A stretch of 64,000 nucleotides of DNA from an uncultured candidate division WWE3 bacterium (GCA_903879985.1 CAIRNR010000007.1:465519-529518), one strand, 5' to 3'. Positions 31,599 to 42,856 are shown, numbered from the stretch's first letter. Notes: a model not told the origin generated them from the letters alone. Translations and numbers: made by a program.

Positions 31599-33026
31599 AT
31601 GAAAAAGACCAAATTACTTATTACAACTGCAATAGACTACACAAACGATGTTATTCACATTGGGCATGCCTACCAAAAGGTTTTGTCTGATTGCTTAGCG
31701 CGTTATTATCGCCATACGTTTGGTCCTGAAAAAGTATATTTCTTAACCGGTACAGATGAGCATGGTTCTACCAACGAAAAAGCCGCCAAAGCGCGCAATA
31801 TTTTACCCCTTGACCATGTAACCGAAATATCAGCCAAAGATAAAGAACAACTCGACGCCCTAAATCTCTCTTATAATCGTTTTATTCGTACAACTAATGA
31901 GGATCACAAAAAAATTGCTCAAGATTTCATGCAGAAGTCCTTTGATAATGGAGATATATATTTAGGTAAGTACGAAGGTTTGTATTGTGAAGGCTGTGAG
32001 TCGTATAAAACCCTTTCTGAGTTAAACGATGACGGGCAATGCTTGTTACATCCAACACGCCAGATCCAAAAAATTGAAGAAGAAAATTACTTTTTTAGAT
32101 GGAGTAAATACGTTGATTTCCTAAAGGATTTATTATCCGAGCACGGTTTTGTTTATCCCGAAGGTAAGCGAAAAGAAATGTTAGCCCTTGTTACACAAGG
32201 TTTAGAAGATTTGCCTGTAAGTCGCCCAAAATACAAAGTTTCTTGGGGAATTGATGTCCCATTTGATCACGAACACGTTATTTATGTTTGGTTTGATGCT
32301 TTGATTAACTATTACACCGCGGGTGTTCAAAACGGATTTTGGGATGACGAAACAGAAATTATTCATGTTTTAGGTAAAGATAATGCTAAGTGGCATGCGG
32401 TTTTATGGCCTGCAATGTTAAAGAGTGCCGGATATCGTTTGCCAGACACAGTTTATGTTCATGGATTTATAAACCTGGATGGAGAAAAGATCAGTAAATC
32501 TCGTGGAAATGTTATAAGACCAACTGAATTGACTGAAAAGTTTGGTGTTGATCCCGTAAGATATTACTTTTTAAAGCAAGGTCCCATTGTTGAAGATGTA
32601 AACATAAGTTTAGATCAGTTTAGAGAAGTTTATAATGCGGATTTAGCGAATGGTTTAGGTAATACGGTGGCACGTTTAGCCAAGTTGGCTGAAAAATCCG
32701 GAGAGACACTAAACATTTGTATGCCGGCACAAGAAGTTTGGACTGAAACTTGGTCAGACTCGTTTAAAGAATTTCGTGTTGATTTAGTTTTACAAGGTGT
32801 GTGGGCAAAACTTTCGGAAATTGATAAACATATCAACGATAACGAACCATGGAGTATTAAGGACAAAGCAAAGTTAAAAGAAGTTTTAGAATTTGAAATC
32901 ACTAAACTAATGGAAGTGGCCGTTATACTAGAGCCATTTATGCCTGCGACTTCTGAAAAAATAGTAAGTCAGTTTGAGACGGGAAAAGTGATTGCCGAGA
33001 CGCCGCTGTTTCCTCGAATATCTTAA
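31599..33026 (+). CDS. metG: Methionyl-tRNA synthetase (core, 475 aa)
   Basis: HIGHAY (HIGH) and KISKSRG (KMSKS) motifs. Confidence 0.9.
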   Translation: MKKTKLLITTAIDYTNDVIHIGHAYQKVLSDCLARYYRHTFGPEKVYFLTGTDEHGSTNEKAAKARNILPLDHVTEISAKDKEQLDALNLSYNRFIRTTNEDHKKIAQDFMQKSFDNGDIYLGKYEGLYCEGCESYKTLSELNDDGQCLLHPTRQIQKIEEENYFFRWSKYVDFLKDLLSEHGFVYPEGKRKEMLALVTQGLEDLPVSRPKYKVSWGIDVPFDHEHVIYVWFDALINYYTAGVQNGFWDDETEIIHVLGKDNAKWHAVLWPAMLKSAGYRLPDTVYVHGFINLDGEKISKSRGNVIRPTELTEKFGVDPVRYYFLKQGPIVEDVNISLDQFREVYNADLANGLGNTVARLAKLAEKSGETLNICMPAQEVWTETWSDSFKEFRVDLVLQGVWAKLSEIDKHINDNEPWSIKDKAKLKEVLEFEITKLMEVAVILEPFMPATSEKIVSQFETGKVIAETPLFPRIS

Positions 33027-34411
33027 TGACTAATTTACCCGAGAATTTTAAAAAAGCACTGATAATTATTTCCACCAAATTAAAAGATTATCCTTATGCA
33101 ATACGTGGTACGTCTAGCTTGGTTTTGCAAGGATTTGAAATGAACGCTGATGATATTGATATATTAGGGGACGAAAAAGTTGCTGGTGTTGCCAACGAAC
33201 TTTTTAAAGAATATTTAGTTGAACCTGTTGAATATAAAGAATCTGATAAATTCATTTCTCATTACGGGAAATTCGATATTGAAGGCGTGCAAGTCGAGTT
33301 TATGTGTGATTGGAAGATCAAAGATACTAAGGGAAATTGGACAGAAGCCTATACCGCAGTTGAAAGAAAACCTATTGATTTGGAAGGCCATGAAATTTAT
33401 GTAACCACACCCCAGCTTGAGTTAGAATTTTTCACAAAAATGGGCCGTTGGAATGCCTTTCACAAATTAAGAAAGCAACTTCCTACTCACGAGAAAATGT
33501 TGGTCATAGACACCTTTAATATTATGCATCGTGCTTACCACGCGATTCCCGCGACTTTTAAAGACCTTGAAGGAAATCCCACCAACGCAATTTACGGTGT
33601 CACTTCAATGATTATAAATTTACTCGATCAAGTTAAACCTCAATATTTTGTAGCAGCCATCGATGGAGAAAAACCCGTATTTAGACACGAAGATTTTACT
33701 GGTTACAAAGCACACCGTCGTCCTGTCGAAGATGATTTGTCCGTACAAATTAAAAAGGTTTTCGAAATACTTGAGGCTTTTGGTATCAAACAAATTCAAG
33801 TTGATGGTTACGAGGCAGACGATATTATTGGCACGTTATCTACAAAGTTTGTCGGAGAAGTTGACGTTATTATTAATTCTAACGATCGTGACTTGTGGCA
33901 GTTAACTGGGGAAAATGTTTTTTTACTTGTACCCAGCAAAGGTGGAGATTTAGAATGGCTTGGTCGCAAAGAAGTTACAGCCCGCCTAGGTTTTAGTCCC
34001 GAGCAAGTTCCCGACTATAAAGGTTTGCGAGGTGATCCTTCTGATAATATTCCCGGAGTTTTTGGTATTGGCGAGGTTACAGCTACTAAATTAATAAAAG
34101 AATTCGGCTCTGTTGAAGAGATTTATAAAAATATTGAAAAGGTGCAGCCCGAAGCATTACGAGAAAAACTACTTAATTGCTACGAACAGGCAGTTATGAG
34201 CAAAAAGCTGGCACAGATTATTTGTGATGTTCCTATGCACGTAGAGCTGGCCGAATGTAAGTATAGTGATTACAATCGCACTAAAATTCGAGATGTTTTG
34301 CAAAAGTATGGTTTTAAATCTTTGATTAAGCGTTTAGGTTTTGATACCGAGGGGAAGCCCAGTAAAGCTAGTAAGACCGTTGTAGCGGAAGATCAGTTGG
34401 CCCTGTTCTAA
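33026..34411 (+). CDS. Fusion: N-terminal Pol-beta-superfamily nucleotidyltransferase-like domain plus 5'-3' exonuclease/FEN (Pol I N-terminal type)
   Basis: Residues 1-155 carry RGTSSLVLQGFEMNADDIDILGD (the G[ST]...D.D NTase signature, Lnu-like). Residues 158-461 carry the FEN acidic clusters (IDT, AAIDGE, DGYEADDIIGT, SNDRDLWQL) and an H3TH. There is no stop between the domains, and the start overlaps the metG stop (TAATG). Confidence 0.7.
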   Translation: MTNLPENFKKALIIISTKLKDYPYAIRGTSSLVLQGFEMNADDIDILGDEKVAGVANELFKEYLVEPVEYKESDKFISHYGKFDIEGVQVEFMCDWKIKDTKGNWTEAYTAVERKPIDLEGHEIYVTTPQLELEFFTKMGRWNAFHKLRKQLPTHEKMLVIDTFNIMHRAYHAIPATFKDLEGNPTNAIYGVTSMIINLLDQVKPQYFVAAIDGEKPVFRHEDFTGYKAHRRPVEDDLSVQIKKVFEILEAFGIKQIQVDGYEADDIIGTLSTKFVGEVDVIINSNDRDLWQLTGENVFLLVPSKGGDLEWLGRKEVTARLGFSPEQVPDYKGLRGDPSDNIPGVFGIGEVTATKLIKEFGSVEEIYKNIEKVQPEALREKLLNCYEQAVMSKKLAQIICDVPMHVELAECKYSDYNRTKIRDVLQKYGFKSLIKRLGFDTEGKPSKASKTVVAEDQLALF

Positions 34412-34429: not shown

Positions 34430-35089
34430 ATGACCATTAGCAAAACTCAACAAAATAAATTACAAAAGCATGCTGAGCAGATTGCCCAAATTCTGCAAAA
34501 AAACTATCCTTCTCCAAAAACCGAACTTAATTTTAAAGACGAATACCAACTTGCAGTCGCGGTTATGTTATCCGCACAAACTACCGATAAAAAAGTAAAT
34601 CAGGTTACTCCCGCACTTTTTGAAAAATATGCTAAATGGTCCGATCTTGCCTTAGCAACCCCTGCCGATATTGTGCCCATTATTCGCGCAGTAAACTTTC
34701 ATATCGGAAAAGCTGAACGCTTAGTTAAGGCTGGTAAAGTTGTTACCTCTCTTTTTGGCGGACAATTACCTCATGAACTAACAGAGCTAATTAAGATTCC
34801 TGGGGTAGCACGTAAAACAGCCAATGTTATTTTGCAGGAACTTTGGGACATAACTGAAGGGATTGTAGTGGACACTCACATCACCCGCGTATCGCAGCGT
34901 TTAGGTTTGACTACAAATGATGATCCAAAAAAGATTGAAAAAGATTTAATGTTATTGTTACAGCAAAAATATTGGAGAAATTATTCTGGCGCGGTTGTAT
35001 TGCATGGACGTTATATTTGCACAGCAAGAAATCCGAAATGTGAAGAATGTGTGTTGCATACTGTTTGTCCGAGTGCTTTTAAAATCTAA
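34430..35089 (+). CDS. nth: Endonuclease III (Nth)
   Basis: HhH-GPD fold (LPGVARKTANVIL) and a C-terminal CX6CX2CX5C 4Fe-4S loop. Confidence 0.9.
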   Translation: MTISKTQQNKLQKHAEQIAQILQKNYPSPKTELNFKDEYQLAVAVMLSAQTTDKKVNQVTPALFEKYAKWSDLALATPADIVPIIRAVNFHIGKAERLVKAGKVVTSLFGGQLPHELTELIKIPGVARKTANVILQELWDITEGIVVDTHITRVSQRLGLTTNDDPKKIEKDLMLLLQQKYWRNYSGAVVLHGRYICTARNPKCEECVLHTVCPSAFKI

Positions 35090-41614: not shown

Positions 41615-42856
41615 TTAACTCAGACTTTTTATAATATCTAAAACTTCTTGTGGTGTAGTACAGACTTTTAAAATATCGCGTTCGCCGGCTGGAATTAACA
41701 TCGTTTCTTCAATAGTATCCAACAGTTTATTCCAAAAGGCACCGTACAATACTATTGTTTTACTGTTAGGCTCATGAATCCATGATGACACCCATGTCAT
41801 ACCAAATTCACTTAACGTACCAATGCTTCCCTTAAAAACAATATGAACGTCTGCATTTTGTAGCATAACTTTTGTTCTGTCAAAATAATCGAGTGTAAGT
41901 ATTTCCTCATCAAAATCATTTCCTTTACCAACACCCTCGTAATGTCTTTTTGGTTTGTTTGGATGATAGGTTATTGCTAATGCTCTTTTACCGGCAGCAT
42001 GTGCACCTTTTGTAGCTGCTTCCATAACGCCTGGGCCGCCTCCATTAACTACTTCGTAATTGTTTGCGGCTAAGACTTTTGCAACTTCAAAAGCATCTTT
42101 ATATGGTTGATCAGTACTTTGCCATGAAGCTCCTCCCAAAAAAGCAATTTTCTTAGCAAGTATTGGTTTAACATCGTATAAAGAACTTATTTGGTTTGCG
42201 TCAGTTGTTTTAGTCATATTTGTAAATTCCAAATACTTTTGTCTTGGGTTTGTATCTCTAACTATAGCAGAACCAATTACGGCACTGTCAATTCCTGTTT
42301 GCAACAATTGTTTAATATTTTGTTCCTTAATTCCGCCATCAACCTGTACCGGCATTTCGGGATACTTTTTTTTAAACTGTGTGATTTTTGTTAATACTTC
42401 AGGCAAAAATGGATGACCTTGTCCGCCCGGCTTCACACTTAAAAACTGAACGTAATCGGCCGCATCCATAACTTTATCCAGTGCTTCCAAAGGTGTTTCA
42501 GGATTTATAGCTACACCTGCAACATATTTAAGTTCGTGTGCGCGTGATAAAAATTCTTTAATATCATTATTTTCAATATGTGCGCAAATTTTAATAACAT
42601 TTGGTATTGCTTGTTTCAGGTAATCCATTGGATTTTCAACCATCAAATCGACTTCAAAAAATTGCTCAGAAAACATGGAAATCTTTTCTATTTCTAAAAA
42701 GGTTTTACCCTCAACAAACTGTCCATCAACAATATCAATTTGAACGAGTGGCGCGTCTCCGGCAAGTAGACTTAGTTTTCTTTCCACTTCGGCAATATCG
42801 GGCTCAAGTATGGTTGGGATTATTTTAGGAAAGAAGTTTTGGGCAGTTTTATTCAT
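41615..42856 (-). CDS. Fusion: ribulose-phosphate 3-epimerase (N) plus LOG/TIGR00730-family Rossmann domain (C)
   Basis: N-terminal half: IDIVDGQFVEG, VDLMVENP, LSVKPGGQGHPF, VQVDGGI (Rpe). C-terminal half: NGGGPGVMEAATKGA and FKGSIGTLSEF (LOG family). Confidence 0.75.
   Translation of the reverse strand: MNKTAQNFFPKIIPTILEPDIAEVERKLSLLAGDAPLVQIDIVDGQFVEGKTFLEIEKISMFSEQFFEVDLMVENPMDYLKQAIPNVIKICAHIENNDIKEFLSRAHELKYVAGVAINPETPLEALDKVMDAADYVQFLSVKPGGQGHPFLPEVLTKITQFKKKYPEMPVQVDGGIKEQNIKQLLQTGIDSAVIGSAIVRDTNPRQKYLEFTNMTKTTDANQISSLYDVKPILAKKIAFLGGASWQSTDQPYKDAFEVAKVLAANNYEVVNGGGPGVMEAATKGAHAAGKRALAITYHPNKPKRHYEGVGKGNDFDEEILTLDYFDRTKVMLQNADVHIVFKGSIGTLSEFGMTWVSSWIHEPNSKTIVLYGAFWNKLLDTIEETMLIPAGERDILKVCTTPQEVLDIIKSLS

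Follow-up and report, generated by a model that had tools for sequence, protein, structure and literature searches.

A minimal nucleotidyltransferase fused to a Pol I-type 5' nuclease with a clamp-binding-type tail in a candidate division WWE3 bacterium and related Patescibacteria

A 64,000-nucleotide stretch of DNA from an uncultured candidate division WWE3 bacterium (referred to here as the window) encodes a nucleotidyltransferase (NTase) joined to a 5'-3' exonuclease or flap endonuclease (FEN). The fusion is one real two-domain protein that is translated as a unit. Taken as a whole, the data are best explained, with somewhat better than even confidence, by a competent NTase that is joined to a FEN, equipped with a clamp-type tail and directed to the junctions that the two share. 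The NTase is most likely a clamp-associated partner of FEN at nicks or gaps. From a search of the literature, an NTase-FEN fusion in Patescibacteria seems to be previously undescribed.

The features of the locus are collected in Table 1. The preliminary description of the sequence placed the start of the ORF on the metG stop codon, at TAATG, and the coordinates support this: the last A of the metG TAA (33024-33026) is the first base of the fusion ATG (33026-33028). In relatives, the TAA is either followed directly by the ATG or overlaps it by one base. The N-terminal extension was also noted to be open up to the FEN domain and presumed to be translated. No stop codon was found within it, and it is under purifying selection (see below). 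The ORF is separated by an 18-nt gap from nth, which encodes a base-excision-repair glycosylase/lyase, and no terminator-like site was found on the + strand between the two; they are probably part of one operon. A promoter and terminator scan gave no signal exceeding the shuffled background, and no Shine-Dalgarno-like motif was found before the fusion ATG, the internal M158 or nth.

Table 1. Features of the fusion locus, in window coordinates.
Feature	Position	Strand	Basis or remark
metG, methionyl-tRNA synthetase, 475 aa, upstream of the fusion	31599..33026	+	PF09334 matches on L003, L005 and L007 orthologues
TAATG, metG stop overlapping the fusion start	33024..33028	+	read from sequence
NTase-FEN fusion ORF, complete	33026..34411	+	461 aa plus stop codon, ATG start
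TM1012/ANT(2'')-type minimal nucleotidyltransferase domain, residues 1-152	33026..33481	+	
G28-T29, hG[GS]-type NTase motif	33107..33112	+	invariant in alignment A2
D43-I44-D45, metal-binding D-x-D of the NTase active site	33152..33160	+	D43 and D45 invariant in A2
E91, third catalytic carboxylate (h-E-h strand)	33296..33298	+	invariant in A2
5'-3' exonuclease/FEN N-terminal resolvase-like catalytic domain, residues 157-321	33494..33988	+	PF02739, E = 6.8e-47
M158, internal in-frame ATG at the domain junction	33497..33499	+	kept in 5/5 fusions
FEN H3TH/SAM-fold DNA-binding domain, residues 324-418	33995..34279	+	PF01367, E = 3.7e-33
Low-complexity tether, predicted disordered, ~residues 439-456	34340..34393	+	low pLDDT, variable in alignment A1
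C-terminal QLALF, residues 457-461, beta-clamp-binding-type pentapeptide (QL[SD]LF / QxxLF)	34394..34408	+	pattern match
nth, endonuclease III, downstream gene	34430..35089	+	HhH-GPD and EndIII_4Fe-2S matches on orthologues (L003, L005, L007)

M158, at the domain junction, matches the start region of stand-alone FENs, an ancestral 'MKK' is also retained at this position in P0020-22, and gene callers place the FEN start there in two variants where the fusion is split (L029 and L019). M158 may be a secondary initiation site; since no Shine-Dalgarno-like motif lies upstream of it, we infer its use rather than read it from the sequence. The best AlphaFold2 model of the fusion had a mean pLDDT of 90.2 and a pTM of 0.73, and the remaining four models had mean values of 77-80. 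The predicted inter-domain geometry is uncertain. Within the tether, residues 444-452 fall below a pLDDT of 50, the last blocks score 48-58, and the stretch differs in both sequence and length across alignment A1.

The N-terminal domain may be considered in terms of the motif RGTSSLVLQGFEMNADDIDILGD (residues 27-49), which had been recognized at the outset as a Pol-beta-superfamily NTase signature. A phmmer search aligned residues 21-152 with TM1012, a 'putative nucleotidyltransferase', with a significance far beyond chance (E = 4e-15), and TM1012 itself matches the family profile with E = 9e-27. Against Pfam PF10706 (Aminoglyc_resit), the isolated domain scores 29.3 bits with a gathering cut-off of 21; the match is not listed for the scan of the whole 461-aa protein and is precomputed for P0019. 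With a score above the Pfam threshold and full-length similarity to TM1012, the domain falls within the TM1012-like/PF10706 family. It also has the Pol-beta-superfamily NTase fold of Holm-Sander, Aravind-Koonin and Kuchta, defined by an alpha-beta-alpha-beta-alpha-beta core with hG[GS], [DE]h[DE]h and h[DE]h motifs. Thus, NTase-fold similarity within the first 155 aa, on which the proposed fusion depended, is borne out by the TM1012 and PF10706 matches. At E <= 0.001, the TM1012-type family comprises 1029 representative clusters at 50% identity. To our knowledge, it is still an orphan family with no assigned function, twenty years after its first crystal structure.

Family alignments identify G28-T29, D43-x-D45 and E91 as the conserved catalytic residues and, from this conservation, the D-x-D is D43/D45 and not D42/D43. 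G28, D43, D45 and E91 are kept in 22/22 close sequences. Both aspartates are present in 100% of the subfamily to which the domain belongs and in 100% of distant family members. The corresponding frequencies are 0.97 and 0.94 for G28, and 0.99 and 0.83 for E91, which aligns with the 'VEIMGD' of TM1012. Position 29 is T in the subfamily (0.95) versus S in distant members (0.89). The acidic triad (D43, D45, E91) is therefore complete, and the domain is apparently catalytically competent with intact active sites, as judged from these residues. The suggestion that the fold might be an inactivated NTase is unlikely given how strongly the catalytic residues are conserved. Conserved residues specific to the subfamily and present in the window domain are R27, T29, S31, N57, K75, W142 and K147/149. 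With a pI of 5.3, the window domain is acidic, and it does not exceed its distant relatives in basicity; nor does the subfamily differ from them in net charge or pI. As a proxy for nucleic-acid binding these values are uninformative, since the FEN part is equally acidic.

The C-terminal part had been described as a Pol I-type 5' nuclease lacking a polymerase domain, with which the Pfam and NCBIfam scores agree. PF02739 (157-321) and PF01367 (324-418) were both matched with full model coverage. In alignment A1, the acidic residues D162, D213, E263, D265, D266, D287, D289, D337 and D340 are invariant, as is the GLRGDPSDNIPGV block of the H3TH domain. The best PDB matches were M. smegmatis Pol1 (6vde, 1e-48), with which the FEN aligns over residues 2-280, and Taq (1e-47). 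The protein is a Pol I-type 5'-3' exonuclease/bacterial FEN. It is not a DNA polymerase I by the scores of TIGR00593 (303 vs 720) and NF004397 (289 vs 600 bits), as the Pol I models were matched only at positions ~2-290, which is the 5' nuclease. The best score against the NCBIfam '5'-3' exonuclease' equivalogs (PRK14976.x) was 233.1 with a cut-off of 305, and that against flap endonuclease Xni was 152 with a cut-off of 261. By these profile scores, the FEN part is a divergent superfamily member and none of the named equivalogs. A check for a separate Pol I polymerase gene covered ten large ORFs of the window (413-958 aa plus the 382-aa RmuC), and none was found among them. The public annotations ('hypothetical protein', '5'-3' exonuclease', 'polymerase I protein') overlook the NTase domain.

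The fusion recurs elsewhere with 58-80% identity. An identical protein (P0018) is present on 13 public contigs, the longest of 715 kb, and P0020 is present on 10. Five fusion clusters with 58-100% identity have the gene order RmuC-metG-fusion-nth in common. In a comparison of the window with L003, pN/pS was 0.10/0.75 for the NTase part and 0.12/0.78 for the FEN part. Purifying selection on the NTase part is as strong as on the FEN. A homologue search with the N-domain only gave stand-alone proteins of 156-182 aa, and the fusions came from a full-length search; the N-terminus of the fusion aligns with these solo NTases from residue 1.

A stop codon separating the two parts in close relatives had been named as an observation that would speak against the fusion. 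Such cases exist as minority variants only. One arose through a single C-to-T change, C436T (L029, Q146*), and another through a 5-nt deletion that shifts the frame (L019). The NTase module is absent altogether from L028, and P0414 matches the P0022 FEN part with 98% identity, 4/5 differences being located <=29 residues from the junction. Since the intact form predominates (13 contigs, and 10 for P0020), these variants do not make the fusion unreal. The existence of near-identical strains with a split module, or without one, does indicate that the NTase module is accessory and dispensable. Relatives without an NTase (L025-L028) have the same gene order and also a tight metG-FEN junction, so that the module appears inserted exactly between metG and FEN. 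The coupling to metG that was initially noted holds insofar as the gene adjoins metG; the metG-FEN junction is ancestral and older than the NTase insertion. A link to tRNA via metG was rejected because the tight junction is found in relatives without the NTase.

The window NTase belongs to a Patescibacteria-specific subfamily with a probable functional link to FEN. The opposite domain order, FEN-NTase, was found in about 50 protein clusters, mostly from Woesebacteria (L021, P0140 and ~48 more), and the two orders occupy different clades in a neighbor-joining tree. In L023, the NTase (ending AQPGLF*) and FEN are separate, overlap by TAATG and are followed by nth; the upstream gene of this abutting pair is FtsH, not metG. 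The majority of solo NTase copies are not adjacent to FEN. Fpg is encoded near the NTase loci in L020 and L021, and nth is nearby in the window. In distant members of the family, the fusion partners are methyltransferase, HAD and GrpB domains. A literature search for a described NTase-FEN fusion, or for PF10706 in such a context, gave nothing relevant. The window also contains a second lineage-specific fusion of neighboring genes, RPE+LOG, at 41615-42856.

The C-terminal tail provides a further connection between the two parts. Q457, L458 and L460 are invariant in A1, and the QLALF sequence is located at the extreme C-terminus after a tether predicted to be disordered, as expected of an accessible clamp-client motif (QL[SD]LF / QxxLF). 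QxxLF is an accepted clamp-binding signature (PMC12926913). A QxxLF-type end is present in 117/120 Patescibacteria FENs and in 12/17 close solo NTases, about a third being without a tail, versus 1/133 distant family members. As a control, 2/92 ORF segments in the window had such an end. The reverse fusions have the motif at the C-terminus in 48/48 cases and in the internal linker in 0/48. In 48 + 5 fusions of both orders, there is one QxxLF per fusion and it is always C-terminal. The canonical QLxLF that ends almost every solo Patescibacteria FEN parallels the PIP-box of FEN1, which tethers FEN1 to PCNA in archaea and eukaryotes. From the five-residue pattern, we infer that the QLALF tail may bind the clamp; dnaN is absent from the 64-kb window.

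'Rosetta-stone' fusions are among the strongest computational signs of functional coupling. It is quite probable that the NTase is active and that its function is coupled to that of a FEN tethered to the clamp on DNA. In the proposed mechanism, FEN and NTase would meet at the same junctions (nicks, gaps or flaps), both recruited by the sliding clamp, as Okazaki fragments mature and/or as repair proceeds after Nth or Fpg. A fused NTase would be carried by the FEN and would no longer need its own clamp tether. The FEN would remove a 5' flap or RNA primer, and the NTase may use an NTP or dNTP to nucleotidylate a hydroxyl at the same junction. As for the acceptor, the upstream strand may offer its 3'-OH, a guess modelled on the 3'-end extension catalyzed by MenT; this specific 3'-OH nucleotidylation is doubtful as it stands. 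Both the action on DNA and the acceptor are presumptive, and the fact that the characterized relatives ANT(2'') and LnuA modify small molecules is a point against a role on DNA. Other observations that weigh against the preferred reading are the partner domains of distant family members, the acidic NTase, the solo NTases that have no tail, the position of most solo copies away from FEN, and the dispensability of the module.

In a bolder version, the Patescibacteria NTase would be a minimal enzyme, tethered to the clamp, that works on nucleic-acid 3' ends as a gap-filling or a terminal nucleotidyltransferase, and together with FEN it would act as a non-homologous analogue of Pol I in Okazaki-fragment maturation or base-excision repair. 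This version is improbable. If it were true, the FEN-NT order of Woesebacteria would reproduce the domain order of Pol I, the orphan TM1012 family would gain a DNA-metabolic function, and a new, very small clamp-dependent DNA-end-modifying enzyme would have been found. More generally, if the NTase acts on the ends of DNA or RNA at junctions loaded with the clamp, it would be a new enzyme in bacterial lagging-strand or base-excision processing. Patescibacteria, whose genomes are reduced, form a huge uncultivated radiation in which the toolkits for replication and repair are minimal. The fusion and its relatives suggest that DNA replication or repair in these bacteria includes an accessory step not yet described. 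The subfamily now has a concrete, testable context in the form of a clamp-type tail and a fusion, in both orders, to an essential flap endonuclease.

Several other explanations were considered. An artefact, with separate NTase and FEN genes merged through an error of assembly or sequencing or with only the FEN from M158 being a real gene, might be argued from the two split variants and the in-frame Met conserved at the junction. This is effectively refuted by the identical 461-aa protein on 13 independent contigs, by intact fusions in at least five diverged clusters from many samples, by the pN/pS and the conserved protein sequence of the N-domain, which imply translation, and by its alignment with solo NTases from the first residue. 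A real fusion could still be a neutral one, in which a small-molecule NTase of the ANT(2'')/Lnu type, modifying an antibiotic or metabolite, came to lie beside FEN and the intervening stop codon was lost in a streamlining genome without any coupling. The fusion of distant family members to small-molecule enzyme domains, the RPE+LOG fusion in the same window, the dispensable and strain-variable nature of the module and its acidic character are all compatible with such an event. It is nevertheless an unlikely account: the two domain orders are placed in different clades of the NTase tree, an unfused abutting pair occurs behind FtsH instead of metG, the subfamily has a tail in common with FEN that is nearly absent from the rest of the family, all 48 + 5 fusions have exactly one terminal QxxLF, and the NTase is under purifying selection equal to that of FEN.

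A regulatory NTase could tune flap processing without acting on nucleic acid, either by AMPylation or UMPylation of a replisome protein such as FEN or the clamp, or by sensing nucleotide levels. Protein-modifying members of the NTase-fold superfamily are known (Kuchta 2009, PMC2794190), fusion to a target or tethering near it would fit, the catalytic residues are intact, and the acidic surface speaks against extensive DNA binding. No close protein-NMPylating relative was found among the sequence or structure matches, however, the nearest characterized structural neighbors act on tRNA 3' ends or small molecules, and there is no candidate acceptor residue, which leaves this possibility marginally behind neutral fusion. 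Least plausible among functional roles, and very improbable, is a strain-variable toxin or defence cassette, either a MenT-like modifier of tRNA 3' ends, which would account for the place next to metG, or a component of a toxin-antitoxin or anti-phage system. While the module does vary at the strain level (P0414 versus the FEN part of P0022) and the gene does adjoin an aminoacyl-tRNA synthetase, neither PADLOC nor PHROG gave a match to the fusion, its NTase domain, a solo NTase or a FEN-NT protein. There is neither an antitoxin-like partner gene nor sequence-level similarity to DUF1814/MenT, and the adjacency of metG and FEN is older than the NTase. This role would also leave the clamp-type tail and FEN fusions unexplained, and it is implausible that a toxin would be joined to a housekeeping nuclease that is essential and under purifying selection.

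The preferred reading of a clamp-associated FEN partner may be set against known systems. [quoted passage not shown] The aminoglycoside adenylyltransferase ANT(2'')-Ia/AadB (PF10706; 4xje) and the lincosamide adenylyltransferase LnuA (4wh5) are only 10-14% identical to the window NTase and beyond sequence reach of the family profile. Both are antibiotic-resistance enzymes that act on small molecules, are often plasmid-borne, and have no clamp-type tail or nuclease fusion. MenT1 and MenT3 (TglT) of Mycobacterium tuberculosis are structurally related and have no sequence-level relationship to the window NTase, which does not belong to the MenT/DUF1814 toxins. The MenT enzymes are toxic and act on tRNA, whereas the window NTase is fused to a housekeeping nuclease and has no antitoxin partner or defence-library match.

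Family X polymerases (Pol beta, bacterial PolX and ASFV Pol X) have in common with the window NTase a superfamily palm with G-S and D-x-D motifs. They fill base-excision gaps alongside FEN, and in ASFV Pol X ~174 aa suffice for a gap-filling polymerase. The window NTase is not a Family X DNA polymerase by sequence similarity or by the combination of the palm with fingers, thumb and 8-kDa subdomains. Like the C-terminal 300 aa of the window protein, Pol I and the stand-alone FENs (M. smegmatis FenA, E. coli ExoIX/Xni and B. subtilis FenA) contain a bona fide Pol I-type 5' nuclease. We know of no canonical C-terminal QLxLF tail in E. coli ExoIX or Pol I. The window fusion differs from Pol I in that it has no Klenow-type polymerase or 3'-5' exonuclease domain, its partner domain having a Pol-beta-superfamily fold unrelated to that of Pol I. 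The reverse FEN-NT fusions resemble Pol I in their organization, with the nuclease first and the nucleotidyl-transfer domain after it.

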